From positions 1 through 49,976 of IMG/VR virus record IMGVR_UViG_3300032212_000016: a stretch of 49,976 nucleotides of DNA, one strand, 5' to 3'. Position 1 is the first letter of the stretch. Every line of letters begins with the position of its first letter. This DNA is from a virus (lineage: Duplodnaviria; Caudoviricetes). This document shows, piece after piece, positions 3,116 through 46,823 of the stretch. A model generated the notes under the pieces. The model did not search any database, had not been told where the DNA came from, and saw nothing but the letters and a program-made list of their open reading frames with translations. A program made the translations under genes and the position numbers.

Positions 3116-3380
3116 TCATACGTTAAGTATTGAGGAGATACCTCCTCATGACAATAGGATAGACCCTCTAACTCTCTCTACTGTACGTAGGCAGGTTGGG
3201 GGTTCACATTATCAATTAGCTATTGAACCTATAGATTATATTGTAAAGAATAATCTAGGTTATAGGGAGGGGAATGTAATTAAATATGTCTCCAGACATA
3301 AGAATAAGAATGGAGCTGAGGATATTAAGAAGGCTATCCATTACCTAGAAATGATATTAGAGGAGTATGAAAATGTTTAG
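3090..3380 (+). CDS. DUF3310 / T7 gp1.7-like nucleotide kinase domain protein
   Basis: QVGGSHY...GNVIKYVSRHKNKNGAEDIKKAIHYL signature. Confidence 0.85.
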   Translation: MMSSMKNSNHTLSIEEIPPHDNRIDPLTLSTVRRQVGGSHYQLAIEPIDYIVKNNLGYREGNVIKYVSRHKNKNGAEDIKKAIHYLEMILEEYENV

Positions 3381-3579
3381 AAAAGATTTAAATAGCATCT
3401 TATCTGGAGTTAATAAGATTAAAAATGATTTAATAGTATTTGTAGAAGAATCTTATGATACCCTTAATAAAAATAAGGAAAAAATGACTTCCTTACAAGG
3501 AACTCAAGAGGAACTTAAAAAAGGTATAGATAAGGCTAATAAAATACAAGTAAATATTAATGAATTTTTAGGAGAGTAA
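3367..3579 (+). CDS. Hypothetical coiled-coil protein
   Basis: ORF with GGAG RBS, overlapping its upstream neighbour. Confidence 0.6.
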   Translation: MKMFRKDLNSILSGVNKIKNDLIVFVEESYDTLNKNKEKMTSLQGTQEELKKGIDKANKIQVNINEFLGE

Positions 3580-14669: not shown

Positions 14670-15532
14670 TAGTTAAATCCTGCATTTTGTTCAACCAACA
14701 TACCTGCTTGGGTAGCCCCTGTATCTCCTATCCAAGTTGATTGGTAGGGGGAACCATATCCACCAAAAGCAGGCTGTTGGTAGCCTCTCCCGTATTGATA
14801 CGCAGCTAATCCACTAGTTAAAGTATTCGCTATTCCTAGTGTACCAGCAGCCCTTGCTTTACCTATATCAGATTGATATCCTGCGATCCCCCTATTAATA
14901 TCACTTACAGAACCAGCATATTGAGCACCTAAATTAGATGCAGCACCTGCTGCTTGTTGTCCAGTAGAAGCAAGATTAGAGTATTGTCCAAGACGGAATA
15001 TACCCTCCCCCCTTCTCAATTGATAGTCTTGTAATGATCTACCACGAGCAGCTTGAAATTCTTGGGCTGCCATACGTTGACCATAATCCTGTAAACCTAT
15101 CCCTAATTTACCAGAGAACCTTTCACCCCCACGAGCAGCCATACGCTCTAGTCCTTGGTATCCTTGACTTAGACGGAACTGATATCCCGGATCTTCTCTG
15201 TATTGATCTAGCCCAAAACCACCCCATTTAGGTAGCTGATCCTGAGCAAGCATCTGTTCATATGTTTCAAGACCTCTTTGCCCTGCTTCACGATAGGGGG
15301 CAAGATTAGCCTGACCTATATCATATTGTCTTTTCTGCTCTTCTAATGATCTTTGTTGTTGTGATAGACCAGCAGCCTGTCCAGCAGCAGCTTGCTTAGA
15401 GGCTTTCCTAGAAGAAACAAGACCAAGCCCGACTGAAAATGCAGTAGACAAACTTAAAGTACTAGAGTCAATAAAACCTTTAATAACTTTAAGAGGATTT
15501 ATAAAGTTCAATATATCATTAATTTTAATCAT
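14669..15532 (-). CDS. DNA ejection protein (P22 gp7-like)
   Basis: Q/A/G-rich, with NLAPYREAG and DPGYQFRL.QG motifs. Confidence 0.75.
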   Translation of the reverse strand: MIKINDILNFINPLKVIKGFIDSSTLSLSTAFSVGLGLVSSRKASKQAAAGQAAGLSQQQRSLEEQKRQYDIGQANLAPYREAGQRGLETYEQMLAQDQLPKWGGFGLDQYREDPGYQFRLSQGYQGLERMAARGGERFSGKLGIGLQDYGQRMAAQEFQAARGRSLQDYQLRRGEGIFRLGQYSNLASTGQQAAGAASNLGAQYAGSVSDINRGIAGYQSDIGKARAAGTLGIANTLTSGLAAYQYGRGYQQPAFGGYGSPYQSTWIGDTGATQAGMLVEQNAGFN

Positions 15533-27298: not shown

Positions 27299-28144
27299 TT
27301 AAAGCTCACCAGAATCTACAAGCTGATCAACATATTCTTGTACATTCTCAAAAGCTCCAGTATCTACAAACATTTTAGCGAATTGTCTTTGTTCATCACT
27401 TAAATCTTTTTCAGTATATTTAGATTTTTTAGGCCGTTTACCAGTACCTGTTTTTTCTGTAACAGTACCAGCACTTACCTGTCTTTCGTTACCGAAATTA
27501 TGAGGAAATTTCCTCTTCATTTCAGAAGTGACATATTTTAAAACATCTTCAATCGGAGCACCTTGATTTCTATCAGCATATTCCATACCAATAGCATCAG
27601 CAGCACCCCTCAATGATATATCATTATGGTACCAACTATTTTCACCAGCCCATTCAACAAATGCTGGATTAGGGGCTAACTCTGTATTATCAGCAGGGTG
27701 TTCTTCTTCTGACGGTAAAGAGTTTTCAGCAGCCTTCTTAGCTTCTTTTAGTTCATCCATCTTTTCATCAATTTCTACAACCGATGCATGATCATCATCT
27801 TCCAAGGCATCAATCTTTTCTTTTTTAAGAGCAGATAATGCCTTTTTGTATTCTTGTTCAGCAATCTTTTTATTATGTTCACCTAATGCTTTCATTGCAC
27901 TCTTTAAGTTATCAATCTCACTTGTATAAGAGTTTAATTGCTTAGATTGTTGTTGAATTCGTGACATAAATTCACCATTACGATTAAAGGTTTTAGCATC
28001 AACCCAATCATCAGGCTCTCCAGTCCACTCATCTTCTGGTCTCCACCCTGAAGCCATTGCCTTCTCTTCAGCAGGGGATAATTTTACTTCTTCTTCATTA
28101 ATTTCTTCTCTTTCTAAATCAAGATCTAAATTTTCTTCAGACAT
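27299..28144 (-). CDS. Putative scaffolding protein
   Basis: Acidic coiled-coil; GWRP...W.DA and NSWY; between portal and MCP. Confidence 0.65.
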   Translation of the reverse strand: MSEENLDLDLEREEINEEEVKLSPAEEKAMASGWRPEDEWTGEPDDWVDAKTFNRNGEFMSRIQQQSKQLNSYTSEIDNLKSAMKALGEHNKKIAEQEYKKALSALKKEKIDALEDDDHASVVEIDEKMDELKEAKKAAENSLPSEEEHPADNTELAPNPAFVEWAGENSWYHNDISLRGAADAIGMEYADRNQGAPIEDVLKYVTSEMKRKFPHNFGNERQVSAGTVTEKTGTGKRPKKSKYTEKDLSDEQRQFAKMFVDTGAFENVQEYVDQLVDSGEL

Positions 28145-28820: not shown

Positions 28821-30818
28821 CTATTTAGAACTTGTGTCTCCATTTGGAGTAGGTTTTTCTTCTGCCTGTTTCAAGCTAGTTATAGCTTGTAATCGTTGAG
28901 TTAAAATACCTTCTTGTTTTACTATACCATCAATAAGGGAATTTACTTGATCTATTTCAATTCCACTTTCTGTTGCAGAAGCTTTAGCAAGGTTAGCAAT
29001 TGCCGATGCATAATCTTTCATAGCTTCATATTGTGTATTGGCTACTTGTAATTCATGGGTAGCGGTCTCTAATCTAACCTGATGATCAAATTTTTCCATT
29101 TCTAATTGAGTTTCAAAATCAGGTTGAGGAGGTTGTACTTCCATTAATTGATCAATATTCTCATGACCTTCTGCTTCTAATACTTGACGTAATACTAATG
29201 ATGGATTTAATGGGAATCCTGCTGATAATTTCTCTACTAAGGATTGTGCCTTAGCCATAGCATGTGCTTCTGATAAGATACTTGGATCAGCTCCGGGGAT
29301 AATATCTAAATCATCCATATTAAAATCGCTTAATCTAATAGTTTGTAAACGTCCATCATCTAATACATTAAAGTATTTTTCTTTATCTAAATAATAACTA
29401 TTTAGACGATATATCTTTTTATATTCTTTACCCAATGATCTATAAATACGTTTGTATATAGATACAAATACTTTCATACCTTGTTCAAGTACAGCAACTG
29501 TAGTAGAATATGGTTGATTTTGACCGGGATTCTCTCCAACCATAATATCTTTAACAGATGCTAATCTTTCACCAGACTGAATTAACATATCCAATAATTG
29601 AAATAATACATTACTAGGATCACGGGTAGGCATTGGGTAGATACCTTTACGTAAATCATCTCCAGTAGATTGTACTGTTTTCCACTCACCCGGCTTATAA
29701 CGTAATGCACCACCCCTAACACGCACACCTTTTGCTAGAAAACCACCTTGCATATTACTCAGTGTACCAGCATCAGTTAATTGATTTAGGAGGGTATTGA
29801 TTGATGTATTAAGTGGTCCTAACAAAGAACCAAAACCCAACGAGTATATTTTACTTTCTGGATTAGGAATAAATGAGTATTGTGTAAAATACTCAGTAGG
29901 TGTTATCTTAAGAATTTCACCATCAAATCCAGTAACAATATTTTCTGAAGTGTATCTTGCTACAATACGTAATACTTTCTGACTGTCATGGTCTACAGTA
30001 ACAATATAGGGTTCTTTATAACCATCTTCATCTAAATCTAACCATGTATGACACTCTAAAATTTCATGGGGACTTTCATCACCTGATTGAGTGAGTCCAG
30101 TAATTTCATCACCAACACCATAATGACTACGCTTATCAGGATCTTGGAGATCAATATTTAAATAGATATCCAAGTTTTGATATTCTTTAACTTCGTTTTG
30201 ATCAAGCCATATTCTATGTGTTTTACGAGATTTTTCAAAATCTTCTGCATAATAATTAATGACTAGGTCTCTAGCTAATACTAACTCAGATACTGTATTT
30301 TTTTTACTTGGGCTATAATAAGTCTTTTTAAATGCAAGACCAGTTATAGGGAGGATATATAAAAGACGATCCATATCGTCTTGCCAATCTTCCATCTCAT
30401 GTAGTAATTGATATGACATGTAATCAGAAACACGATTACTTCGGTCTAATTTTAAACCCTGATCATCTCTTTTACCTAATATTTTAGTTTTAACTAATTT
30501 AGGATCATTTACTAGTGCTGGATATGCTCTAGCATGGAATTGTAATGCAGCAGTAGATAATAGGGGATATTTACTATTAGAAGCTCCCGGCCAAGGAAAA
30601 CTCTTATCTTCCATAACCTGAGTAGCTAATTTTAACCATTCCTCATGTTTATCTTCCCAATCACTTCTACTTTCTAAATCATCTTTATAATAATCAACAA
30701 TATCCTTACCTATTCCATCTAGAATATCTTGATCTAAACCCTCTGCAATATTAGAAGATTCTAGTGATTGGTTAACTTGTGTTAAATCTAAATTAGTATT
30801 TGGCATATATTGTCTCAA
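28821..30818 (-). CDS. Portal protein
   Basis: 665 aa directly after TerL; PWPGAS, G.AFKK.Y, DLDEDG..EPYIVT and NQL.DAGTL.N motifs. Confidence 0.9.
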   Translation of the reverse strand: MRQYMPNTNLDLTQVNQSLESSNIAEGLDQDILDGIGKDIVDYYKDDLESRSDWEDKHEEWLKLATQVMEDKSFPWPGASNSKYPLLSTAALQFHARAYPALVNDPKLVKTKILGKRDDQGLKLDRSNRVSDYMSYQLLHEMEDWQDDMDRLLYILPITGLAFKKTYYSPSKKNTVSELVLARDLVINYYAEDFEKSRKTHRIWLDQNEVKEYQNLDIYLNIDLQDPDKRSHYGVGDEITGLTQSGDESPHEILECHTWLDLDEDGYKEPYIVTVDHDSQKVLRIVARYTSENIVTGFDGEILKITPTEYFTQYSFIPNPESKIYSLGFGSLLGPLNTSINTLLNQLTDAGTLSNMQGGFLAKGVRVRGGALRYKPGEWKTVQSTGDDLRKGIYPMPTRDPSNVLFQLLDMLIQSGERLASVKDIMVGENPGQNQPYSTTVAVLEQGMKVFVSIYKRIYRSLGKEYKKIYRLNSYYLDKEKYFNVLDDGRLQTIRLSDFNMDDLDIIPGADPSILSEAHAMAKAQSLVEKLSAGFPLNPSLVLRQVLEAEGHENIDQLMEVQPPQPDFETQLEMEKFDHQVRLETATHELQVANTQYEAMKDYASAIANLAKASATESGIEIDQVNSLIDGIVKQEGILTQRLQAITSLKQAEEKPTPNGDTSSK

Positions 30819-32690
30819 TAACCAGTTATGGGATTAGCCCCAATATCCATTAAATATAAACTTTCTTCCTCTTCCCACCATTCTTCTTCTAACTCTTGAG
30901 CAGTAGGAGGATCAACCATTTTATCCAATGCTAACCCTATATGAGCTAAAGCATCAACCTGATCCTTATATTGTCCACGAGGGAATTGTGTCATCTCTGT
31001 ATACAAACTATGGTACCAATGGGCATCCATATCAAATTGTATCTGTCCAGCTCTAAGACGTGCTCTGATAGACTGTGCCCTCTTCATCTTATCTTGAGAA
31101 GGGGTAGGATCATCAATAGTTAGATATATCCCCCTTTTTTGCATTTCTTGATTAAGAAAGGGACCTATAGATCTAGCAATATTTTCTTTTTCAATTATAA
31201 AGAGTTCTGGTTCATATCTTTGTTGTAATATAAATAATTCATCAACAATCTCTAAAGAATCCCCACGAAACCTCCTGACATCCACTACCTTCAATTTTCC
31301 TTGAGAATTCATACCTGCTACCACCATAACAGTAAAAGCGGCCCTATCCTTCTCTGAGATAGCGAGATCACATCCTATATAATATTCTAGGTTCTCTTCT
31401 CTATCTTTAATTGGTAAGAAATCATCACCTTGGAAATAGGCATTCTCTTCATCAATTGGGTAATTTAAGTATTCTTGTGAATAACCCTCTGGAAAACCTT
31501 GTTGTACATAGTCAAGTCGTATATTTTTTAATCTTTTCTGAGAAAACTTCTCAGGCCATAACATTTGACTAAAATCGGGACTATGTGCTTGGTATCTTAT
31601 GGATAACCAAGGAGTATCCTCTCTTTCTCTATATTCCTCATCAAGCCAAAACTTAATACCATCTGTTTTAGTATGTTTACCCCCCCAAGGAGGCATTAGT
31701 CTTTCTAGAAGGGAATCCATATGTAAGATTGTTCCTACTATTCTTACCTTACAGTGATCTCCCCCTGCTGGTAAAAGGGCATTAAAGAACCATCTTCTAA
31801 ATTTATCCCTTCTTTCTTCATTTAAGACAATCTCATCATTCTCAAGATCATCTCCAACTATTAAATCTGGACGTGTATTACGCCATTTAGTACCACGTAA
31901 TTTTTGTTCACTACCCTTAGCATCTATACGGAATTGAGTACCATCTTCAAATTCAGCAATAACAACAGATTCTGTATCTTTAACTAACTTTCTCTTTAAT
32001 CCAAAGAGTTCAATTAGGTCATCATTCTCTATTAATTCTCTTTTAATATCACCAAGGAACTGTATTGCCTGTCCCTCTGTATCAGATACAACAAGAACAA
32101 AACGTGCCTTACGGAATAAGACAGATGCTAGAGTGTAGGAGTGGGTTATAGCAGTACTTTTTGCATGCAATATGTTCAAATAAGGTCGTTAATCTTATCT
32201 CGGAAATTATTCCAGCTATATGTTACCATATAGATCAGACTATATCTTCAATCTAATGAATTTAAGTATTGGACTTCTTTTTTCAATTTGTCTCTAAGTT
32301 CCAAGATTTCATTAGTAACTTTATTTGTAGTTCCCATTGTATCTTGTAACTCTAATACTTTCACTTAGATTGGCTCCCGTTTCCACCCACTTAGGTGTAC
32401 GTCTTTCGACTAGTCGTTGAACCTTCCTCTAATACGAGGCTTGGCTGCTGATTGTCCTATTTCAAGGAAGTTCCAGCAATTAGAGAGCTTACGAGGCCAT
32501 GCTGCCTATATTTATATTGCGCCTAGACCTTTAGTTAACCTCGTGGCGCAGCAATCGCTACTTTGGGATCTGGCCTACAGACTAATTCCCATAACTCCTT
32601 ATGGAACGAAGGTGTCGGCTTGGGATTATCAAAGCGAGATAACAATAAGGAGGTAGTAAAACCATATACTGTCTCTGCATTTAATTCCAT
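30815..32690 (-). CDS. terL: Terminase large subunit, spliced: join(32538..32690, 30815..32167), 501 aa
   Basis: Exon 1 ends AIAAPRG and exon 2 begins HAKST, restoring Walker A; also RPDLIVGDDLE, GCDLA and DQVDA motifs. Confidence 0.92.
32168..32537 (-). mobile_element. Group I self-splicing intron (370 nt)
   Basis: Exon 1 ends in U and the intron ends in G; P AATTGCTGGAA, Q AATCAGCAG, R TTCAACGACTA, S AAGATATAGTC; the guide GCATG-GCCTCGT pairs with both exons. Confidence 0.93.
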
Positions 32691-32708
32691 ATTCTACCTA
32701 TTCTAATT

Positions 32709-32751
32709 TGGTGGTTGATAAAGGAATCGAACCTAAAATGCCTTGCGGCTC
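32709..32751 (-). ncRNA. tRNA-like 3' half (pseudo-tRNA)
   Basis: GCC-GCAA-GGC hairpin, AGG-TTCGATT-CCT T-loop and ACCA end; no complementary 5' acceptor strand found. Confidence 0.45.
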
Positions 32752-32840
32752 TTTCTATAGTATCTCGACTGCACTACTAACAGTCCCAGTCTTCTTCAAT
32801 ATAAAACATGATTGAACTCCGTGTTTTCGTGTATGGAACT

Positions 32841-32869
32841 ATTATAGTACATATTGATAAAAACACCAA
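32841..32869 (-). promoter_or_regulatory. Possible sigma70 promoter upstream of terL
   Basis: TTGGTG-N17-TATAAT. Confidence 0.4.
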
Positions 32870-32928
32870 AATACCCCCGCTACTAAGTTTTGGGAACTAT
32901 GTTCCTCCCAGAGGATGAGTTAATAAAT

Positions 32929-33010
32929 TGGTGGAGATGATCAGAGTCGAACTGATGTCCAGAGTAATTCCTATGTAGGCTTTTTACCCTGTCGAAACCT
33001 TTCCATCCCC
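32929..33010 (-). ncRNA. Minimal tmRNA-like RNA (tRNA-like domain only, 82 nt)
   Basis: Starts GGGGATGGAAAGGTTTCGAC and ends GGACATCAGTTCGACTCTGATCATCTCCACCA; 7-bp acceptor stem with G3:U70; no D stem; P2a CAGGGTAA/TTACTCTG. Confidence 0.85.
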
Positions 33011-33121
33011 TTCTTTCTTCTTATCTTCTTTATTACCAAAGATACGATCCCATTCAGAATTAAAATGTTTCTCATTAACCTTCATAGGTCTTCGTACAGT
33101 ATTATTTTTGTTGTACTTCAT
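32984..33121 (-). CDS. Small hypothetical protein overlapping the 5' end of the mini-tmRNA
   Basis: MKYNKNN...EWDRIFG; likely start at ATG 33121. Confidence 0.5.
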   Translation of the reverse strand: MKYNKNNTVRRPMKVNEKHFNSEWDRIFGNKEDKKKEGDGKVSTG

Positions 33122-33204
33122 CTTTATTAGCCTTATTCTTTCTAGAAAGATACCTATCAAAAGAATTAACACCAAAAAATGACTAAAAGTGTTCTTTGTC
33201 TATT

Positions 33205-33471
33205 TTAGCTGGATTTATTCTTTTTTCCTGCTGTTTTTGTTCTTGCATAAGATCTATTCTTAGATTTTGATTTAACTTTTAGATTACTAGAAGAGTTATC
33301 ATTAGGGTTTCCATTAGAATGATCCACATCCTTACCATCCCCTTTACTTACCTTACCAGACTTTTCCATCTTCCTACGAGCTGCATTTCTTTTAGCTCTT
33401 CTCTTCTTCTGTGCTGGTTTACCTTGATATTTATCGTATTCTTCCCTATAATTACGTCTAGAACCACTCAT
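33205..33471 (-). CDS. Small basic HNH-like protein next to the terminase
   Basis: RAKRNAARR...GDGKDVDH...N...NL.V...KNRS. Confidence 0.75.
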   Translation of the reverse strand: MSGSRRNYREEYDKYQGKPAQKKRRAKRNAARRKMEKSGKVSKGDGKDVDHSNGNPNDNSSSNLKVKSKSKNRSYARTKTAGKKNKSS

Positions 33472-33671
33472 CGTTCCATAGCCTTTTTGATATCTTCCTT
33501 CCTTTTCCTTCTTTCCTTAGACATTTTACCTCCAATAGATTCACTCTCTACCAGTTTCTCTACTTTCCTTTTCCTTCTTTCTTTAGATTGTTCAGATTCT
33601 TCCCCTTTATAATTCCTAGCACCGGGAACATCATACTTACCACCTGATTTCTTAGATCTTGAACCACTCAT
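33468..33671 (-). CDS. Small highly charged hypothetical protein
   Basis: AGGAGG RBS; SKERRKRK repeated twice. Confidence 0.6.
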   Translation of the reverse strand: MSGSRSKKSGGKYDVPGARNYKGEESEQSKERRKRKVEKLVESESIGGKMSKERRKRKEDIKKAMER

Positions 33672-33675
33672 TGTA

Positions 33676-34350
33676 CTATGAATCCTCCTTTATTACCTCA
33701 TGGGTAGCATCAACAGTCTTAGATTCAAGTTGTCGTGCTATATCCTCAAATTTATTCTGGAGTAGGGCCATTGCATCCTTACCCTTATTATTCTCCACCC
33801 TAGATGTTGGATCACCTCTCAGTAAAGCTCGTTTATCATACAAAATACCAACGATGGTAGCTAAATCCTTACCACCAATCCCTAATCGTATTACAGAACC
33901 ATCTCTACCAATTTTCTCATCACCATTGATAATCCTATCATTTAATTGACCCATAGCAATATGTACAGTTTGAGAGAATTGAGCATCTAATTCATCTTGT
34001 TTCTTCTTTTTACACTCTGCAAATACAGAGGGCCACCAAGAAGAACGTGTCTTCCAATCCCTAATGATATCTGCTCTCACACCACAATATTTCTGAGCTT
34101 GTCTAGAGGTTCCAGTGATAAGATAAGCAGAGGCAGCAGCTATCTTTTGTTCTGGAGAATATTTACTATTTGGAGCATAGAGATCCTTTAAATCTATTTC
34201 CAAATAAGATTCAATATATTCTTCATGATCAATATCAATCAAAGGTACTGTATCAGGCATACCATAAACTACTTCACTTTTAGGCATATTAAGTTCTTTA
34301 TCCCAATTCTTTGAATTATCTTTACCCTTTTCATACAACACTTTTGACAT
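33676..34350 (-). CDS. Putative terminase small subunit
   Basis: HTH-like segment (AQKYCGVRADIIRDWK), GILYDKRALLRGDPT; first gene of the late arm. Confidence 0.7.
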   Translation of the reverse strand: MSKVLYEKGKDNSKNWDKELNMPKSEVVYGMPDTVPLIDIDHEEYIESYLEIDLKDLYAPNSKYSPEQKIAAASAYLITGTSRQAQKYCGVRADIIRDWKTRSSWWPSVFAECKKKKQDELDAQFSQTVHIAMGQLNDRIINGDEKIGRDGSVIRLGIGGKDLATIVGILYDKRALLRGDPTSRVENNKGKDAMALLQNKFEDIARQLESKTVDATHEVIKEDS

Positions 34351-34504
34351 TTATTTAACCTCTAGGTTTAGTTCTTAGTTTTCTTTTTATTTGTTTTTTA
34401 ACTGTTATTGAGTTATTAGGTGATATTTCTTTACCTTCTTTTCTCTTTTGTATACACTTTCCTGAATATTTGTATTATTATATACAAACAATAATTATAG
34501 TCTA

Positions 34505-38330: not shown

Positions 38331-38407
38331 AGCCCTATAGCTTAATTGGATAGAGCAACGGATTTCTACTCCGTAGGTTGGGGGTTCGACTCCCTCTAGG
38401 GCTACCA
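38331..38407 (+). tRNA. tRNA-Arg (anticodon TCT)
   Basis: Acceptor AGCCCTA/TAGGGCT, anticodon arm ACGGA-TTTCTAC-TCCGT, TTCGA loop, encoded CCA. Confidence 0.95.
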
Positions 38408-38437: not shown

Positions 38438-39241
38438 ATGGCATATGTAAAATTTAAAGCTATTTCTAAAAAAGGTAAGGTATATTCTTCGGGATCCACC
38501 CCATGTTTTTCTGGATTACGTAACTTTAATTTGGGAGTTGGTATGCTAACTAAAGGAACATGGACTGATATTAACAAAGATCCTTTATATAAGATAAGAT
38601 ATAAACCCAATAACTCATCAGGATTAAGTGATAAAATACTTAACTTTTATTATGACTATCTTTATAACCATAATGGTTGGAGAGATTTAATCTATAATAA
38701 AAATATTTTAAGTATTGAAGAATCAGGAATTGATGCAAGGTGTGATGTTAACGGTTCTTTATTATTAGCTGTACTTTCTGCTTATAGGAATATAGACGAA
38801 TTACCAAAAATGGTTTCATCCTTCTATTATATGTGTAGTCTAGACTACGTTAATAATAAAGATATAGCCTTTTATATGTCTCATTTTGTTCATGTTACAA
38901 AAAATGGAACCATGTATCATTTACCATCTAGTGATAATTATAACACAAATCATCTTATGTTTAATTATTATAATCATTCTATATTAGATGGTATTAAATA
39001 TGCTTCTTCTTTTCCTTATACAGATAAAACAGAGTATCTTCCTAAATTTACAGAAGATTATGTATTTGGAGGTACGTATGAATACTTTAAATTCTCAGAA
39101 AGTGTAAAAGATTCTATTTATTATAAATTTAAGGGGATGTATAAATCTAATGATGATACTATTATCATTAAAAAGTTTAAAAAGTTAATTTTAAAAATGC
39201 AATTTGGAGTGGAGGATATTAAGAAATGTCAAAAAATCTAA
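38438..39241 (+). CDS. Hypothetical protein at the start of the amidoligase cluster
   Basis: 267-aa ORF with RBS. Confidence 0.7.
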   Translation: MAYVKFKAISKKGKVYSSGSTPCFSGLRNFNLGVGMLTKGTWTDINKDPLYKIRYKPNNSSGLSDKILNFYYDYLYNHNGWRDLIYNKNILSIEESGIDARCDVNGSLLLAVLSAYRNIDELPKMVSSFYYMCSLDYVNNKDIAFYMSHFVHVTKNGTMYHLPSSDNYNTNHLMFNYYNHSILDGIKYASSFPYTDKTEYLPKFTEDYVFGGTYEYFKFSESVKDSIYYKFKGMYKSNDDTIIIKKFKKLILKMQFGVEDIKKCQKI

Positions 39242-39906
39242 AGGGTAAAAAGGTAGTAAAAGATACTATTCTTATATTAGGGGCAGGTATATATGCACGT
39301 CCTTTTTATAAACACGGTAAGGTTATATTGGTTTCTGGTATTACCTCTCCTGATGAATATCCTTGGAATAAAATAAAAGGTGTGGTATTCACCGGAGGTG
39401 TGGATGTAGATCCTTCTTTATATAATGAGAAAATACATTCCAAAACACACTCTAATATACGTAGGGATAAATCTGAGAAACTTTTTTATAATAGATGTAA
39501 AGATTTAAAGATACCTACTGTTGGTATTTGTAGAGGTGCTCAGTTTTTAAATGTAATGAATGGTGGTAGGTTGATGCAGCATGTGTATAATCATGCTATA
39601 TCAGGAACACATACTATCATTACAGATAAGGATGAATCTGTTTTTGTTACAAGCACTCACCACCAGATGATGTATCCAAAAGGTAAATATCAATTATTAG
39701 CATGGGCTAATGGTTTATCCAATAAATATGAGACAGGAGGGGGGGTTATTTTTCCAAAATCAAACGGGGAAGTATTTAGAGAACCTGAGGTTGTTTATTT
39801 CCCTGATACAAAATCATTATCTGTTCAATTCCACCCCGAATATATGAAAGATGATTCTAGGGGATATTCTTATTTTCAAGATCTATTAAAGGAGTATTTT
39901 CTATGA
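39226..39906 (+). CDS. Class I glutamine amidotransferase / peptidase C26 (gamma-glutamyl hydrolase-like)
   Basis: FTGG.DVDP..Y, GICRGAQ, STHHQ and QFHPE motifs. Confidence 0.92.
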   Translation: MSKNLKGKKVVKDTILILGAGIYARPFYKHGKVILVSGITSPDEYPWNKIKGVVFTGGVDVDPSLYNEKIHSKTHSNIRRDKSEKLFYNRCKDLKIPTVGICRGAQFLNVMNGGRLMQHVYNHAISGTHTIITDKDESVFVTSTHHQMMYPKGKYQLLAWANGLSNKYETGGGVIFPKSNGEVFREPEVVYFPDTKSLSVQFHPEYMKDDSRGYSYFQDLLKEYFL

Positions 39907-40097
39907 GTATTTTTTTTATTTTAGTACAGGAACCTGTTGGAGTATCTCTAAAGGTGGGTGATACCAATCTTGTTGGTTCCATTACGACTGTTCTTACTTT
40001 TACAAAAGATGGGACAATAATAAGGAGACGTATGCCAGATAATGTTGATTATGGTTTAATCTTAGATGAAAATAGGAGGATTATAATTAATGATTAA
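39903..40097 (+). CDS. Hypothetical protein
   Basis: Coupled small ORF. Confidence 0.55.
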   Translation: MSIFFILVQEPVGVSLKVGDTNLVGSITTVLTFTKDGTIIRRRMPDNVDYGLILDENRRIIIND

Positions 40098-40275
40098 TGA
40101 AAAATTAAGATTGATTGATTATATGGGTGATATCTGTATCCGTTCTAAATCTGATAAAGATACTGATTATTGGTTATTAAAAATAACCCCTGAGGGAGAA
40201 CTTTATCTTTTCGACGGGTTAATACAGGAAAACACTAATTTTTTAATTGAAAATGAATGTATAGTTGTACTTTAG
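40090..40275 (+). CDS. Hypothetical protein
   Basis: Coupled small ORF. Confidence 0.55.
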   Translation: MINEKLRLIDYMGDICIRSKSDKDTDYWLLKITPEGELYLFDGLIQENTNFLIENECIVVL

Positions 40276-40299
40276 TCCAATCTTAATAGGAGAAAGAAC

Positions 40300-41091
40300 A
40301 TGACAAAATATGAAGATATAACAGTTGGTACAGACCCTGAAGTATTCCTTGAATCCAAAAAGTCTGGTATAATTAGTGCTATTGGGTTAGTTGGTGGTAC
40401 GAAAGAAAACCCAATTCCAGTAACTAAGGGTGCATTACAGGAAGATAATGTATTAGCAGAATTTAATATTGATCCAGCCCACTCTCCTAAAGAGTTTATT
40501 ACTAATATTAAAACTGTAATGTCTCAATTAGAAAATAAAGTAAATCCCCATAAACTAAGGGTACTATCATCACATAGGTTTACCCAATCAATGTTAGAAT
40601 CATTGGGTGAGAAAGCATTAACTTTTGGATGTGATCCAGATATAAACGCTTGGGATGGTGAAACTAATGAGAGTCCTTCAGCCTATACAACACTACGTAC
40701 AGCAGGAGGTCATGTACACGTAGGTTTTAAAGTTGATAAAGAAGATTCACAGACTAGATTTAATGTTATTAAACTAATGGATATATATTTGGGTATACCC
40801 TCTGTTTTATTGGATGGTGATACAGAGCGTAGGAGTATGTATGGTAAGGCTGGAGCATGTCGTATTAAGGAATATGGGGTTGAATATAGAACCTTATCTA
40901 ATTTTTGGTTGCAGTCTGAGAAACATATGAAGTGGGTATACTCTCAGAGTATTCGTGCTGTAAAGAATAAAGATTATGTAGATGAAATTATTGATCGTTA
41001 TAGTTCGGATGAAATACAGAATACTATTAATAATAGTGATGTTGAAAAGGCAGAAAGTATTGTATCTGACTTACAACTAGAATTAGTCTAG
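40300..41091 (+). CDS. phiEco32-like COOH-NH2 ligase type 2
   Basis: GTDPEVF, EDNVLAEFN, GCDPD, GGHVH, YGKAG and EYRTLSNFW motifs. Confidence 0.92.
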   Translation: MTKYEDITVGTDPEVFLESKKSGIISAIGLVGGTKENPIPVTKGALQEDNVLAEFNIDPAHSPKEFITNIKTVMSQLENKVNPHKLRVLSSHRFTQSMLESLGEKALTFGCDPDINAWDGETNESPSAYTTLRTAGGHVHVGFKVDKEDSQTRFNVIKLMDIYLGIPSVLLDGDTERRSMYGKAGACRIKEYGVEYRTLSNFWLQSEKHMKWVYSQSIRAVKNKDYVDEIIDRYSSDEIQNTINNSDVEKAESIVSDLQLELV

Positions 41092-41118
41092 ACTACTTTT
41101 ACATAGGAGAAGTTACTA

Positions 41119-41754
41119 ATGGTGGATCAAGTAAGATTCCTTAATCAAAGATTTAAGGATGTAATAATAGCTATTAAAAGAAAATCTAATATCGGAAAAG
41201 TTATACCTATACGTGTTCATAAGTTTTTAAATGATGATGAAGATGGTACTATTATTATACGTTATAATAATATAGGGAGTGATAACATTGTTGAAACTAC
41301 ATTTTATGAAGATGATTATATTTTAGATTGCCCAAAAGTAGGAATGGTTGGAATTGGTAAAAAAACTATGTACCTAAGACGTATTCCTGAAAGGCAATGG
41401 AAAAGGGGGTATAATTCATCAATTATACGTGGAGAAACTTTATGTAATAAGGAAAACATAGAGATGGGTCTTAATAGAGTTAATATTATGAATAATTCTA
41501 TTGTTGATGCTATATATAATCCAGACTACCCTAATTTTAATGAAGCATTAAACGATATGATTAAGGGTAAATTATTATCATTCCCTATCTCTCGTAAATT
41601 TGCTGTAGGGTTAAATTATGATGCTGCCTTTCCTGTTATTTATTATAAGGAATGGGTAGTTGGTTGGGTAGATGAAGGTACTATCATGCTCCCAGAGAAG
41701 ACACATCATTTATATGAAGAATTATCACAATATACTGAATGTCGGAGGGTATAA
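41119..41754 (+). CDS. Hypothetical protein of the amidoligase cluster
   Basis: R.PERQWKRG motif; AGGAG RBS. Confidence 0.7.
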   Translation: MVDQVRFLNQRFKDVIIAIKRKSNIGKVIPIRVHKFLNDDEDGTIIIRYNNIGSDNIVETTFYEDDYILDCPKVGMVGIGKKTMYLRRIPERQWKRGYNSSIIRGETLCNKENIEMGLNRVNIMNNSIVDAIYNPDYPNFNEALNDMIKGKLLSFPISRKFAVGLNYDAAFPVIYYKEWVVGWVDEGTIMLPEKTHHLYEELSQYTECRRV

Positions 41755-42866
41755 TGCGTAAAAATAACAAACGAATACATAGTTTAATGGGTGTACCAGC
41801 AGATCCTTGTGAGTATAAAGAAAGCCCCAAGTTAATTAGTAATACTCTAATAGGAATTGAGGTAGAATTAGAAAATGTTAGAGGTTTGGATTTTAATAAT
41901 GAATCGTTTAGAAAATACTGGAATATAGTAGAAGATGGTTCTTTAAGGGATGGTGGATTAGAGTTCGTATTATCTCGCCCTTTTGCAGGATCTGATTTAA
42001 TTAAAGCACTAAAGGAGTTTGATAAAACCATCTCTAAATATAAAGATCGGATTATTTTATCTGAACGTACCAGTGTACATGTTCATATTGATGTACGTAG
42101 TCTAGACTACAGCCAGTTACTTAAATTTGTATCATTGTATACAATATTTGAAGAGCCTTTGTTTAGATTAGCAGGTGGGGAAGATAGAAAGAATGGAATA
42201 TTTGCTACATCACTATCTAATGCAGAGGGATATATAAATCATTTAGGGTCAGAAGGAGACTCTCCTAGTGAGAGAAATGCTAAGGATATTATTTCAAACT
42301 TTTCTAAATACTCAGCATGTAATTTAGCAGCAGTAAGACAATATGGTTCTCTAGAGTTCCGTAATCATGAAGGAACATATGATACTGAACGTATCTTAAA
42401 GTGGGTAAATGTATTATTATTGCTTCGTAAAAATGCCATTGAAAATGAATTACCAATTCAAGAAATATTAGGAAATATATCAATTAATGGTGCTGAGAAA
42501 GTATTTAAAGATATTTTCTTAGAATATTCAGATGAAATGATGTATCCAGATTTAGAATTTGATATGTTTAATGGGTTACGTCTAGCACAAGATATTATCT
42601 ATTCTTCAAACCTCTATTCAGGTATTGATGTACCAAAAGCTAAATATCTTAAAGATACTTTATTTTCTAAATTTTATAAATCCCATAATAGGAAACGGTT
42701 TAAAGAGCGTTTTGAAAGATTTATAAAACATAATAACATTGAGGGTTCTAAACCTATACCCGATGATTTATTAGATTTAGATAGATTACATCGTATTCTT
42801 GAAGAACACAATCGTAATATTACGATTGAAGTAGATGATGATTTTGATAATCAAGTTATTCGTTAA
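41739..42866 (+). CDS. Putative amidoligase
   Basis: GIEVELE, DGSLR, EF, TSVHVHID, KY...NL and GSLEFR motifs. Confidence 0.9.
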   Translation: MSEGIMRKNNKRIHSLMGVPADPCEYKESPKLISNTLIGIEVELENVRGLDFNNESFRKYWNIVEDGSLRDGGLEFVLSRPFAGSDLIKALKEFDKTISKYKDRIILSERTSVHVHIDVRSLDYSQLLKFVSLYTIFEEPLFRLAGGEDRKNGIFATSLSNAEGYINHLGSEGDSPSERNAKDIISNFSKYSACNLAAVRQYGSLEFRNHEGTYDTERILKWVNVLLLLRKNAIENELPIQEILGNISINGAEKVFKDIFLEYSDEMMYPDLEFDMFNGLRLAQDIIYSSNLYSGIDVPKAKYLKDTLFSKFYKSHNRKRFKERFERFIKHNNIEGSKPIPDDLLDLDRLHRILEEHNRNITIEVDDDFDNQVIR

Positions 42867-42909
42867 TTAACTGGTAAAACTTACAAAACGTAAGTGAGGA
42901 GATGAGAAA

Positions 42910-44580
42910 ATTTGTGGAATAGTTGGTATGATAATTGATCAAAACACAAGAGATACTAAAAAATTCATATGGCAAGGTTTATATTTAGACGCTCTTCGTG
43001 GATTTGATGCTACTGGGTTGGCGACTGTAGATGTGAAAGGTGCTATAACTATTAATAAAAAAGCTATGCCATCTAATGATTTTTTACAATTAACCCCTGT
43101 TGATGATCAAATTGAGGGATGGAATAATCGTGTATTTATTGGGCATAATAGATTAGCGACTAAAGGTGCTGTGAATAATATTAATAGTCACCCTTTCCAA
43201 CATGACCATATAACAATGGTTCACAATGGATCATTAACCCACCTTAATAAACTTCCTGAGAATCATAGGTTTGATGTAGATAGTGATAACCTAGCACATA
43301 TGTTATCTACTATAGGAGTATATGAAACTCTAAAGATTATTCAGGGTGCCTTTGCCTTAGTTTGGTATGATGAGTTAGAGGAAAAAGTATTTATGGTACG
43401 TAATAATCAACGTCCTTTACATTATGCTACTGTTAAAGATAAAAATATTGTTATGTATGCCAGTGAAAAAATAATGTTAGAGTTCTTAATGAAACGTAAT
43501 GGTTTTACCCCAGAAGAGGTAAACCTGTTACCTGTTGGGAAGCTACTATCATTCGATCCAAAAAGTAAAGATATTAGTAAATACATATCAGAGGATGTTG
43601 AATTATATAAAGAACCAAATCAGTCAAATAACTGTTATGGAGGTACAAAGCGTAATAACGCTAATAGCTTTCAACAGGGAGGTTACGAAAAAGGAAAGGA
43701 AAATAGCTCGTCGAAAAAGAAGGAAGGAAAAGGAAAAGAGAAAACTAGCGGAGAAACTAGGATTGCTAACATAAACCGTATGTTTGAAGACGCTGGAATT
43801 AAAAAGGGAGATCGACTTAGTTGTTGTATGTATTCATTTACTAATTACAAAACTGGTAATACTGATCGTGGTATTTGGGAAGGAAGTACTATTGAAGAGC
43901 CTTATCTTACTGTTATGGCTTATGGGGCTACTGAGGCTGATTTTGAGGTAGGTGAAGTATACTCTATGGAGGCTTTAAGTATGCAGGTTACTAGAGTATC
44001 TAACTCTCCAATAGTTATTAAAGAAGAACGTGTTATTGTAGATGAACAATCTAAAATATTAGAAAATTATGAAAATGAATCTTCTGATAATAATAACTCT
44101 GAGGAATATGCAGAAACTTCTATTATTTTAGCGGGGGAAACAGAACACCCTACATTAGCAGAAGAAGTGGCGGCTTATAAAGAAGGTATTAGTCTTGTAG
44201 GTAAAACTCGTTCTGAGATAAAACGATCTATACAGGAAAGACGTGAAAAAAAGCCTATAATTGCACTTCCTTATAGTAATAAAGCTGATACAGGTAGTGA
44301 GGATCTAATATATCCTAACCCAGAAAATGATATATTAGATGAAACGGAGACTGGTAATGTTGACTTCGTTTATTTAGTAGGTCCTCGTGGTACAACCATC
44401 CCTAAACATGAGTTTGACTCTTTAACAAAACATGGGTGTTCTTCTTGTACTGGAAATATATTTCCAGAAGATGCAGAGTCTATGGAATGGTGGGGAAGTG
44501 ATAATACAAACCCTATATGCCCTTCATGTGTAGAAGAATTCTATAAACTAGCTGAACAAGATAAAGGACGGAGACATTAA
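42910..44580 (+). CDS. Class II (Ntn) glutamine amidotransferase with long C-terminal extension and Zn finger; probable ATT start
   Basis: (M)CGIVG from ATT 42910; RG.D.TG, GHNR.AT, NSHPF, HNG and DSD motifs; C-terminal CSSC...CPSC. Confidence 0.9.
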   Translation: MCGIVGMIIDQNTRDTKKFIWQGLYLDALRGFDATGLATVDVKGAITINKKAMPSNDFLQLTPVDDQIEGWNNRVFIGHNRLATKGAVNNINSHPFQHDHITMVHNGSLTHLNKLPENHRFDVDSDNLAHMLSTIGVYETLKIIQGAFALVWYDELEEKVFMVRNNQRPLHYATVKDKNIVMYASEKIMLEFLMKRNGFTPEEVNLLPVGKLLSFDPKSKDISKYISEDVELYKEPNQSNNCYGGTKRNNANSFQQGGYEKGKENSSSKKKEGKGKEKTSGETRIANINRMFEDAGIKKGDRLSCCMYSFTNYKTGNTDRGIWEGSTIEEPYLTVMAYGATEADFEVGEVYSMEALSMQVTRVSNSPIVIKEERVIVDEQSKILENYENESSDNNNSEEYAETSIILAGETEHPTLAEEVAAYKEGISLVGKTRSEIKRSIQERREKKPIIALPYSNKADTGSEDLIYPNPENDILDETETGNVDFVYLVGPRGTTIPKHEFDSLTKHGCSSCTGNIFPEDAESMEWWGSDNTNPICPSCVEEFYKLAEQDKGRRH

Positions 44581-44581
44581 T

Positions 44582-45433
44582 ATGGTACAAAAACAATATA
44601 GAATATTCCCTTATAAAATGGGGAGTAAAGGTGCGGGTAGATTAGCTGAAGGTTTACGTAATGAGGGGGAGAGGTGTTTTAAAGTATTCTCTGATAGGAA
44701 TTATAGACCTAGACAAACCCATAAAATCATTAATTGGGGGAATAGTTCTACTCCTCAATGGTTAATCGAATATGGTAATCGCTTTCCATTTTCTCAATTG
44801 GATGTGTTAAATTGGCCACAATATATTGCTAATGCAAGTAATAAGTTAATGGCATTCAATATTATGAGGGATGCAGGAGTCTCTATTCCTGAATTTACTA
44901 CTGATGAATCTATAGCACAACGATGGTATTTAGAAGGTATTAAAGTTGTAGGTCGATCAAAATTAAAAGGTCATAGTGGTGATGGTATCTATATTACTGA
45001 TGATTTAGATTACCCTCAAGGTGAGGGGGGTATGGATGTAATTATGATGAGAGAAGTGGTAGGTCATCAATTACCCTTATATGTTAAATATATTAAGAAG
45101 AGTGATGAATATCGTGTACATATAGTAAAGGGTACTATCATAGATGTTCAACAGAAAAAGAAACGTCAGGAGATTCCTAATGAAGAGGTTAACTACCAAG
45201 TACGTAATCACTCTAATGGGTGGGTTTACTGCCGAGATGGTGTGTTACCTCCTGAGAGTGTTTCTAGTGATGCTTTATCTGCTATGGATGCTCTTGGTCT
45301 TGATTTTGGAGCTGTTGATATTATTTGGAACAATCACTACAAGAAATCTTATGTTCTGGAGATAAATACAGCTCCGGGATTAACAGGCACAACATTAAAT
45401 AAATATATACATGCTTTTAAACAAGTAGTCTAG
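44582..45433 (+). CDS. ATP-grasp peptide ligase
   Basis: NWG, NK, GHSG.GI, EYRVH, LDFGAVD and LEINTAPG motifs. Confidence 0.9.
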   Translation: MVQKQYRIFPYKMGSKGAGRLAEGLRNEGERCFKVFSDRNYRPRQTHKIINWGNSSTPQWLIEYGNRFPFSQLDVLNWPQYIANASNKLMAFNIMRDAGVSIPEFTTDESIAQRWYLEGIKVVGRSKLKGHSGDGIYITDDLDYPQGEGGMDVIMMREVVGHQLPLYVKYIKKSDEYRVHIVKGTIIDVQQKKKRQEIPNEEVNYQVRNHSNGWVYCRDGVLPPESVSSDALSAMDALGLDFGAVDIIWNNHYKKSYVLEINTAPGLTGTTLNKYIHAFKQVV

Positions 45434-45463
45434 ACTACATTAATTATATAGGAGATTATCAGA

Positions 45464-45910
45464 ATGTCAGAATATCGTATTAAAACACCCTATGGTAATA
45501 TTAAATTCAGATGTGAACGGAATATGGGAAATTGTGGTATTTCAATTATTAAAGGAGTTAAATTCCATTTGGATATGGGACAAACTAAAGACGATTTATA
45601 TAAATATTTCCATGATGAAATTTTATTTGGTGATAAAGATATAAATAGTGACCCTAATATTGATGGGTGGAATTATACAAATATCCGTCGTAATAATGGG
45701 GATTGGGTAGTACATAAATTTATTTTATCAGACCGAACAAATCGTAATAGAGAAAAAACTAGTATATATGATTTTTGTAAACATGTAGAAGCATTAGAAG
45801 GAACTGTAGTGTTTAACCCTAATAGTGGCAACAATATTCAAGTATTTGAATTAGATAGACCACTAACACAAAAAGAAAAAGAAAGTATTGAACCTAGAGG
45901 AGTATATTAA
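45464..45910 (+). CDS. Hypothetical protein (paralog of 46020-46448)
   Basis: GNCGI, SD, IY..C and NPNSGN motifs. Confidence 0.7.
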   Translation: MSEYRIKTPYGNIKFRCERNMGNCGISIIKGVKFHLDMGQTKDDLYKYFHDEILFGDKDINSDPNIDGWNYTNIRRNNGDWVVHKFILSDRTNRNREKTSIYDFCKHVEALEGTVVFNPNSGNNIQVFELDRPLTQKEKESIEPRGVY

Positions 45911-45929
45911 ATACTTATTTATGTATATA

Positions 45930-45990
45930 AATCAATAACTTATAAATAATTGAATTATTTATTGAACTATTTATAAAAGCTGGTGTCAAA
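45930..45990 (+). promoter_or_regulatory. IHF-like site plus sigmaE-type promoter
   Basis: AATCAAtaacTTA (45930-45942); GAACTA-N16-TCAAA (45964-45990). Confidence 0.6.
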
Positions 45991-46019
45991 TATCCTATTA
46001 AATTTACAAGGAGATTAAT

Positions 46020-46448
46020 ATGCCTAGAACTAAATCTGAAACCCCCCAATTAAATGAAGGAGATAATTGGTCATTTAAAACTAAACATGGAGCTGTCAAA
46101 TACCTTAGTAGGGGATTATCAGGGTGTTGTGGTATAGGTGTAGTATTTAATGTAATATTTGGTAGATTATCCGATGATCATTCGGTGTTCTATAAAGAGT
46201 TTGAAAACCATCTAAAGACTATAGAGGATGATATTTTAAACCGAGGTGCTATAATGATGAGTGATGCTGTTGGAGGTGAGGAAGACAGAGAGTATCGGGG
46301 TATCCCCTGTATATACTCTATGTGTGAAACATTAGACTGGGATAAGAGTGAACCGGTATATAATCCACGTTCAGGTAATAATGTTGTTACGTTCATCATG
46401 GAGCGTAATGTATATGGTCTTGCTAATGAGTATCCATTAGAAGATTAA
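46020..46448 (+). CDS. Hypothetical protein (paralog of 45464-45910)
   Basis: GCCGI, SD, IY..C and NPRSGN motifs. Confidence 0.7.
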   Translation: MPRTKSETPQLNEGDNWSFKTKHGAVKYLSRGLSGCCGIGVVFNVIFGRLSDDHSVFYKEFENHLKTIEDDILNRGAIMMSDAVGGEEDREYRGIPCIYSMCETLDWDKSEPVYNPRSGNNVVTFIMERNVYGLANEYPLED

Positions 46449-46469
46449 TAATAGGAATAATAAAAAATA

Positions 46470-46823
46470 ATGAAAGATAAAATTAAAGTAATGGTTTATG
46501 GTTCCCTTAAGAGAGGGTTTGGTAATCATTCTTACCATTTAGGAAATAGTGAATATTTGGGAAAAGTAGAAACTCTCCCACAATATACTATGTTCTCTCT
46601 TGGTGGGTTTCCCGGTGTTATACCCAATGGTAAAACGTCTATACAAGGAGAGTTATATAATGTAACTGAAAGAGAACTACGTACCCTTGATCGTTTAGAG
46701 GGTAATGGGAGTTTTTATACTCGTGAGGTAATTGAGACTAGCGAGGGTGAAGCTTGGATATATTTACTACCAGAAGATAAATATAATCATTATGAAGCAA
46801 TTGAAGATGGGGTATGGGTATAG
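46470..46823 (+). CDS. Gamma-glutamylcyclotransferase (AIG2-like)
   Basis: VYGSLKRGF.NH, GELY, LDRLEG and AWIY motifs. Confidence 0.92.
   Translation: MKDKIKVMVYGSLKRGFGNHSYHLGNSEYLGKVETLPQYTMFSLGGFPGVIPNGKTSIQGELYNVTERELRTLDRLEGNGSFYTREVIETSEGEAWIYLLPEDKYNHYEAIEDGVWV

Follow-up and report, generated by a model that had tools for sequence, protein, structure and literature searches.

The window analysed here is the whole of virus record IMGVR_UViG_3300032212_000016, a linear genome of 49,976 bp with a CheckV estimate of 100%. PHROGs comparisons identify terminase, portal, GroES, capsid, family A polymerase and primase/helicase genes. On the minus strand, between an HNH gene and the large terminase gene, lie a mini-tmRNA gene of which only the tRNA-like domain (TLD) is left, a 45-aa open reading frame and a decayed tRNA-like piece, all on one strand (Table 1). 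Among cultured phages, Alcaligenes phage vB_Af_QDWS535 comes closest, with a capsid protein that is 64% identical and a similar gene set, which makes a proteobacterial host plausible for the source phage. Elsewhere on the plus strand, the genome carries a single tRNA-Arg(TCT) at 38331-38407 and, at 39226-46823, a run of genes for glutamine amidotransferases, a COOH-NH2 ligase, an amidoligase, a RimK-like ligase and a gamma-glutamyl cyclotransferase.

Table 1. Features of the mini-tmRNA and its locus; positions are those of the 49,976-bp window.
Feature	Position	Strand	Basis or remark
Mini-tmRNA gene, TLD only, 82 nt, encoded CCA	32929..33010	-	Rfam RF00023
Acceptor 5' strand GGGGATG, with G3	33004..33010	-	Sequence
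Stemless D-loop, 12 nt, unpaired, ends GGTTTCGA	32992..33003	-	Sequence
P2a 5' strand CAGGGTAA	32984..32991	-	Fold
Cap: AAAG strand, CCT-ACAT-AGG hairpin, AA strand	32968..32983	-	Fold
P2a 3' strand TTACTCTG	32960..32967	-	Fold
GAC linker and T arm ATCAG-TTCGACT-CTGAT	32940..32959	-	Rfam alignment
Acceptor 3' strand CATCTCC (U70), discriminator A73, CCA	32929..32939	-	Sequence
45-aa basic ORF, 'WDRIFG' type	32984..33121	-	Overlaps mini-tmRNA 5' end by 27 nt
Free-standing HNH endonuclease, upstream	33205..33471	-	Pfam HNH_3 27 bits (cut-off 24.8); PHROGs
224-aa ORF, small-terminase position	33676..34350	-	Inferred from position only
Large terminase, downstream, intron-split	30815..32690	-	PHROGs terminase large subunit; exon reading
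Group I intron in large terminase	about 32168-32537	-	Rfam Intron_gpI 98.1 bits
Decayed tRNA-like 3' half	32709-32749	-	Between mini-tmRNA and terminase

The mini-tmRNA matches the Rfam tmRNA model RF00023 at 69.3 bits (gathering threshold 47; E = 5.4e-25), spanning model positions 1-374 while replacing 304 of them with 12 nt. Both ends of the model are intact, and the pseudoknots and tag frame are missing. This agrees with an earlier note, made from the sequence alone, which had described a TLD-only tmRNA and expected an Rfam search to match both ends around a large internal deletion. The minus-strand sequence quoted there from 33010 to 32929, with its acceptor G3.U70, discriminator A and CCA, is reproduced exactly. 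All seven acceptor pairs form, G3.U70 included; P2a has eight base pairs, one of them G.U, and the five-pair T stem closes the loop TTCGACT. G3.U70 and A73 are the keys recognized by alanyl-tRNA synthetase (AlaRS), and a stemless D-loop defines the TLD (PMC3968760). Read in three frames, the RNA encodes no tag, and a search of the whole genome for tag-like frames with [LYFMV]AA at their end found none. An anchored pattern is found once in the 49,976 bp and in none of 200 shuffles, and our own model R1, of which the sequence is itself a part, scores it at 76.1 bits.

A canonical tRNA identity was considered and rejected. The RNA lacks a D stem and an anticodon arm, ARAGORN calls neither a tRNA nor a tmRNA at these positions, and tmRNA is the best Rfam match at E ≤ 10, two weaker overlapping matches of the same clan having been dropped by the tool. 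The cloverleaf with an anticodon that the earlier note had named as the competing fit is thus the poorer description. The 16-nt stretch between the P2a strands does replace the pseudoknots and tag ORF, as that note had proposed, but it is a structured cap rather than a plain loop: AAAG on one strand faces AA on the other in an asymmetric, A-rich 4x2 internal loop that leads into a 3-bp hairpin, and the cap fold of -10.5 kcal/mol (z -3.64) is equalled in 0 of 200 shuffles. Minimum-free-energy folding of the whole RNA (z -2.49) recovers the acceptor, P2a and the cap and mis-pairs the D and T loops.

Around the mini-tmRNA, the packaging region holds several further elements. The 224-aa ORF in the small-terminase position has no match in PHROGs or Pfam. 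The intron interrupts the large terminase between ...PRG and HAKST..., a junction that resembles the Walker A region, and contains no same-strand ORF of at least 40 aa wholly inside it. The tRNA-like piece has a hairpin (GCC-GCAA-GGC), a T-loop (GGTTCGATTCC) and a terminal ACCA, and lacks a 5' strand to match; neither Rfam nor ARAGORN calls it, and its fold z is -1.47. No promoter-like site lies directly upstream of the mini-tmRNA, the nearest on the minus strand being at 33550-33523, and promoter counts in the genome are at chance level. The final nine codons of the 45-aa ORF, stop counted, fall within the mini-tmRNA, so that 5' processing of the RNA would leave a non-stop mRNA. This ORF has no match in Pfam or PHROGs and no homologue by word search and tblastn, and comparison with the Atlas returns hypothetical clusters only, below 0.9. 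The WDRIFG motif itself is present in at least 81 distinct ORFs, and the protein type is widespread among viral contigs.

In vB_Af_QDWS535, the HNH gene abuts the large terminase gene with nothing between them, and a scan of that whole genome with model R1 finds no mini-tmRNA. Judged from this gene order, the mini-tmRNA is an accessory insertion within the packaging region, and its absence from the closest cultured relative indicates that it is dispensable in this phage group. A search for close relatives sharing the locus found none, and blastn of the 82-nt element against GenBank phages gave no full-length match. A separate assembly of run X1, the one run found to contain this DNA and possibly the source sample, covers 32200-34400 in one contig with zero differences and zero joints; because it is identical over 2.2 kb, the internal deletion is not peculiar to one assembly.

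The source-phage RNA belongs to the type known from Mycobacterium phage DS6A, an under-catalogued kind. The DS6A tmRNA is listed as 'TLD only' (PMC4131195), a published precedent that supports the earlier suggestion that such an RNA may not be unprecedented. It is entered in the tmRNA Website as tmID 11587 (Phage__Mycobacterium.9, JN698994 28478-28560), scores 60.7 bits with model R1, of which it forms part, and has no RNA annotation in the DS6A GenBank record. The two RNAs are alike in length (83 and 82 nt), order of parts, G3.U70 with A73, and lack of a tag frame, and in both P2a ends in an A-rich internal loop topped by a CC..GG hairpin. They differ in that DS6A has GTCGAC, GCAC and CTA where the source-phage copy has TTCGAC, GGAC and an encoded CCA. 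The source-phage copy further differs from the DS6A gene in its setting, the packaging region of a phage that is podovirus-like, and in its overlap with a small ORF. A molecule similar to the DS6A form is reported to inhibit tmRNA whether or not it can be charged, perhaps through SmpB titration (Mao 2009, in PMC4131195), and the DS6A form is described as inhibiting E. coli tmRNA (PMC11915505).

Other known tmRNAs share parts of this architecture. Standard ssrA (RF00023) has the whole tRNA-like domain with stemless D-loop and P2a, whereas the source-phage copy is without pseudoknots, resume codon, tag and stop codon. The CDS-less organellar tmRNAs of jakobid and oomycete mitochondria and Mallomonadaceae plastids likewise combine a TLD with the lack of a tag frame (PMC11915505, PMC3985003). 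These are, however, the only tmRNA of their cell and mostly permuted, whereas the phage copy would meet a full host tmRNA. The permuted two-piece tmRNA (RF04321) has the T arm and the 3' end of the acceptor in common with the phage RNA and gives a weak match (17.4 bits, E 0.98), but the source-phage copy has its acceptor strands in standard order, joined by P2a. As described in PMC11915505, a curated database of 97,179 entries contains 72 permuted and nine standard no-CDS forms, and 79 phage tmRNAs. Organellar and full-length phage tmRNAs are covered in print (PMC3985003, PMC9004378, PMC12656738), as is tmRNA helix 2 on the ribosome (PMC10944890). A literature search with most subscription journals outside its scope found no paper on a widespread mini-tmRNA family or on the cap.

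Mini-tmRNAs are common in phages and mostly unannotated, and are published for one other phage. The view that such RNAs are noted only rarely therefore holds for print but not for nature, where at least 153 distinct mini cores are found in the union of viral, metagenome and genome scans, compared with the nine standard no-CDS genes of the curated database. The viral set comes from a relaxed pattern run on IMG/VR, whose matches to at least 120 stretches reduce to 102 distinct cores including the source-phage copy; among the matches listed, 97 cores with at least six of seven acceptor pairs are counted as viral minis. The metagenome set comes from a pattern with the acceptor left free and part of the cap fixed, whose 77 matches reduce to 60 distinct copies once the source record is removed. 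Because model R1 places the acceptor one column off for sequences such as the source-phage copy, acceptor pairs were counted with anchored scripts. Identity to that copy reaches 77% at best, with a median of 63%, among the relatives listed.

Several features point to constraint on these RNAs. Firstly, the alanine signal is invariant: G1:C72, G2:C71, G3.U70 and A73 are present in 60/60 metagenome copies, 59 of which form all seven acceptor pairs, and G3.U70 is present in 97/97 viral minis among the matches listed, where the pattern fixed U70 but not G3, so that A3:U70 would also have passed. The last eight nucleotides of the D-loop are GGTTTCGA in 62 of these 97 listed minis, TTCGA having been fixed by the pattern. 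Secondly, the helices P2a and T stem, neither of them used to filter this count, are kept. P2a pairs 2-7 are paired in 81-95 of the 97 listed minis against 38.5-47.6 after shuffling, and every T-stem pair forms in all 97, with four-way change at pairs 1-2. The covariation score is 0.667, compared with 0.148 for shuffled and 0.08-0.14 for slid partners, in an alignment that was fitted to the model and leans that way. Finally, length varies little: of the 90 copies that passed filtering, 77 measure 80-83 nt. Forms with 47-77-nt inserts number 12 in all viral contigs, six of them with a full acceptor, whereas short forms matched with equal strictness number at least 74. Six such longer records (L543-L547 and L553), tag-less and 98-123 nt in length, have full acceptor stems, and several of them keep AAAG-(T)CC in a longer helix 2. 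In bacterial chromosomes, 11 of 119 scored matches (from 120 genome loci) pass as minis, and 68 of the 120 loci are full tmRNAs whose 3' end matched by chance. One contig of a Saccharibacteria metagenome-assembled genome (L184) has a 73-nt TLD-only gene without a cap at 3324-3396.

The cap recurs across the family. In 68 of 84 copies P2a ends in a GC-rich hairpin of 3 bp or more, where shuffling of the loop letters would give 23.9, and both cap sequence anchors are present in 64 of the 97 minis among the matches listed, compared with 3/57 full-length bacterial tmRNAs, which are chance matches and not a random sample. The free third cap pair shows four-way covariation. It is paired in 56 of 64 listed viral copies (30 shuffled, maximum 41) and in 58 of 60 metagenome copies (33 shuffled, maximum 45), contrasts that kinship among the sequences inflates. 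Because the cap is frequent in minis but seldom seen in full tmRNAs, it is a trait of the mini form rather than something passively carried over from various host genes, and it likely provides an extra contact, to the ribosome or a protein, or stability. The breadth of the family, its cap and its invariant charging signal go beyond what the papers searched describe.

Cultured phages carry the RNA as well. Model R1 scores Streptomyces phages BRock, GiJojo and Wofford at 78.7, 75.8 and 46.3 bits and Pontimonas phage phiPsal1 at 78.6 bits, all of them without RNA annotation for the mini, and 41 GenBank phage records are covered to at least 80% with L123 as query. Wofford (L253) has a somewhat divergent mini at 15001-15079 and a full tmRNA at 27737-28016 with tag ANSNVASAYALAA; many Karimacvirus-like records match at the position of the Wofford mini. 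Among 25 other whole carrier records, one has two minis and two also encode a full-length tmRNA (Wofford and G004, the tag call of the latter being uncertain). SmpB is encoded neither in the source phage nor in the 25 other carriers (0/26), so the mini-tmRNA must use host SmpB. Pth is found in 0/26 carriers, Pth2 in 1/26 and a GGQ release-factor-like protein in 2/26, the source phage not among the latter. The two GGQ proteins are short and ArfB-like (L538 275-643 and L539 about 300-640), and one of these records has Pth2 too.

These data bear on whether the element is a non-functional relic, a remnant of an attachment site or an assembly artefact. Integration at ssrA is common, and tmRNAs of MAGs that show large internal deletions are dismissed by curators as artefacts (both PMC11915505); the mini is also missing from the closest relatives. 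Such an origin nevertheless seems highly improbable. Both ends are present and carry compensatory changes, lengths are sharply peaked, minis lie in cultured phage genomes, and the second assembly of the source locus is identical. An ssrA attachment-site fragment in particular was rejected, as both ends are present and pair with each other and a search of the source phage for tyrosine integrase PF00589 gave no match; across the carriers, a tyrosine integrase exceeds the cut-off in only 2/26.

The neighbourhood of the minis is diverse. A search for a dedicated partner protein found no neighbour family common to more than nine of 63 loci. The nearest large ORF is a head/packaging gene in 17 of 62 loci, many of them related and not independent, a tRNA lies within 1 kb in 14 of 58, and positions vary widely to include replication, lysis and tRNA regions. 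Several associations seen at the source locus were rejected on this wider view. A WDRIFG gene stands beside two of the 102 listed minis (those of the source phage and L018), yet a mini occurs at 0/80 loci out of at least 120 WDRIFG loci; the link to HNH genes likewise fails (0/80 loci). A role as a sensor of non-stop mRNA was rejected as a family trait because overlap by an upstream ORF is not enriched: an ORF of at least 60 codons, a cut below which the 45-aa ORF of the source phage falls, overlaps the 5' end of 7/60 minis, 6/44 full tmRNAs and 8/175 tRNAs. With a 35-codon cut, the counts are 17/85 minis and 11/139 tRNAs, many of these frames being likely spurious. The control of arfA offers an analogy for an RNase P cut that leaves a non-stop mRNA. 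At four loci from three lineages (L007, L016, L046 and L159), the upstream TAG stop shares only its G with G1 of the mini.

Proximity to head and packaging genes might suggest a role outside trans-translation, either in punctuating late transcripts for RNase P/RNase E or as an anticodon-less tRNA decoy for defence enzymes of the host. The phiPsal1 copy lies between protease and capsid genes, the source-phage copy lies just upstream of the large terminase, and the RNA has no anticodon to cut. We consider either role very unlikely. Any tRNA could punctuate a transcript, neither role would call for the tmRNA-type stemless D-loop, for P2a or for alanine identity, and the spread of positions and of neighbours noted above does not favour a late-transcript function.

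An intact TLD is processed by RNase P and charged by AlaRS, and with SmpB it can accept a nascent chain. On this basis we propose that the mini-tmRNA is probably alanylated and probably reaches stalled ribosomes in complex with host SmpB, and that it would there rival host tmRNA and lower SsrA tagging; we hold this reading with moderate confidence, at about an even chance. The RNA would be co-transcribed with the packaging genes and excised by RNase P and 3' trimming, after which AlaRS would charge it through G3.U70/A73. The resulting Ala-RNA.SmpB.EF-Tu complex would enter ribosomes with an empty A site and take over the nascent chain. Since the mini-tmRNA offers no message on which translation could resume, the chain would gain a single alanine or a few in place of the SsrA tag, and release would fall to ArfB/ArfA-type factors or to a later host tmRNA. 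At late-gene levels, the mini-tmRNA would leave less SmpB and fewer stalled ribosomes to host tmRNA, and SsrA tagging would fall during infection.

Because the alanine identity is invariant even though inhibition is reported without charging, selection seems to maintain the ability to be charged and, probably, to enter the ribosome. The reported inhibition, which works whether the molecule is chargeable or not, needs no charging, ribosome entry or alanine addition. This leaves room for a pure SmpB sponge, in which the RNA merely withholds SmpB and alanylation only protects the 3' end or is incidental, and no carrier encodes an SmpB of its own. Titration had been offered in the earlier note and agrees with inhibition that is independent of charging, but in its pure form it leaves the invariant alanine identity unexplained (60/60 metagenome and 97/97 listed viral copies). 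Crystals of SmpB were obtained with a TLD ending in a plain UUCG loop (PMC3929946), and yet the cap is conserved; in addition, the two carriers with a full tmRNA encode an RNA that is itself SmpB-dependent. We therefore regard sequestration of SmpB as the sole function as rather unlikely.

Competition with host tmRNA through a charged, ribosome-entering RNA also has points against it. A full tmRNA in 2/25 carriers is a poor fit to tagging shut-off as the sole purpose, and these carriers with both forms, together with the dispensability of the mini in relatives, keep our confidence moderate. Alanine tails can themselves be degrons (PMC8012679), and a release-factor-like GGQ gene accompanies the mini in only 2/26 carriers and is missing from the source phage. 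As for the earlier idea that the RNA enters stalled ribosomes without adding a degron, the absence of a degron is not assured: TLD and SmpB alone enter ribosomes and make poly-alanine in vitro (PMC2481249 and PMC3929946, citing Shimizu and Ueda 2006), and in B. subtilis ClpXP reads C-terminal alanine tails as a signal (PMC8012679, which also covers release by ArfA/ArfB).

The same observations allow the opposite role, in which an abundant and cheap rescue RNA helps to clear ribosomes that have stalled on broken mRNA and expels the message, a template-free alanine tail serving as degradation mark, much as with RqcH but on 70S ribosomes, or the chain being handed over to full tmRNA. Synthesis of poly-alanine by TLD and SmpB and the reading of alanine tails by ClpXP both fit, as do natural two-residue Ala-Ala tags (PMC11915505) and the CDS-less organellar tmRNAs (PMC11915505, PMC3985003). 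A full tmRNA (2/25) or GGQ protein (2/26) coexists with the mini in some carriers, and 14/58 loci have a nearby tRNA. Yet inhibition is the only in vivo result reported in these sources (PMC4131195, PMC11915505), an RNA without a stop codon cannot itself release the chain, and the release-factor count is uncontrolled, both carriers being large, tRNA-rich phages. Assistance to rescue is accordingly an unlikely main role.

A broader formulation joins the competition reading to the family as a whole. Mini-tmRNAs, that of DS6A among them, would be a widespread phage RNA family with a capped helix 2, present in phages of very different hosts, that with host SmpB adds alanine tails without a template at stalled 70S ribosomes, as an RNA counterpart of RqcH, and so diverts rescue from SsrA tagging during infection. 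We put this forward tentatively, as possible but doubtful. The source-phage copy is one more clean example and not a new principle. Mitochondria, some plastids and one phage all pose the question of what a message-less tmRNA does, and the unannotated copies in Streptomyces phages BRock, GiJojo, Wofford and their kin, and in phiPsal1, make that question directly testable. If these RNAs are common and work as proposed, phages would routinely tamper with host ribosome rescue and tagging by means of an 80-nt RNA that ARAGORN misses.
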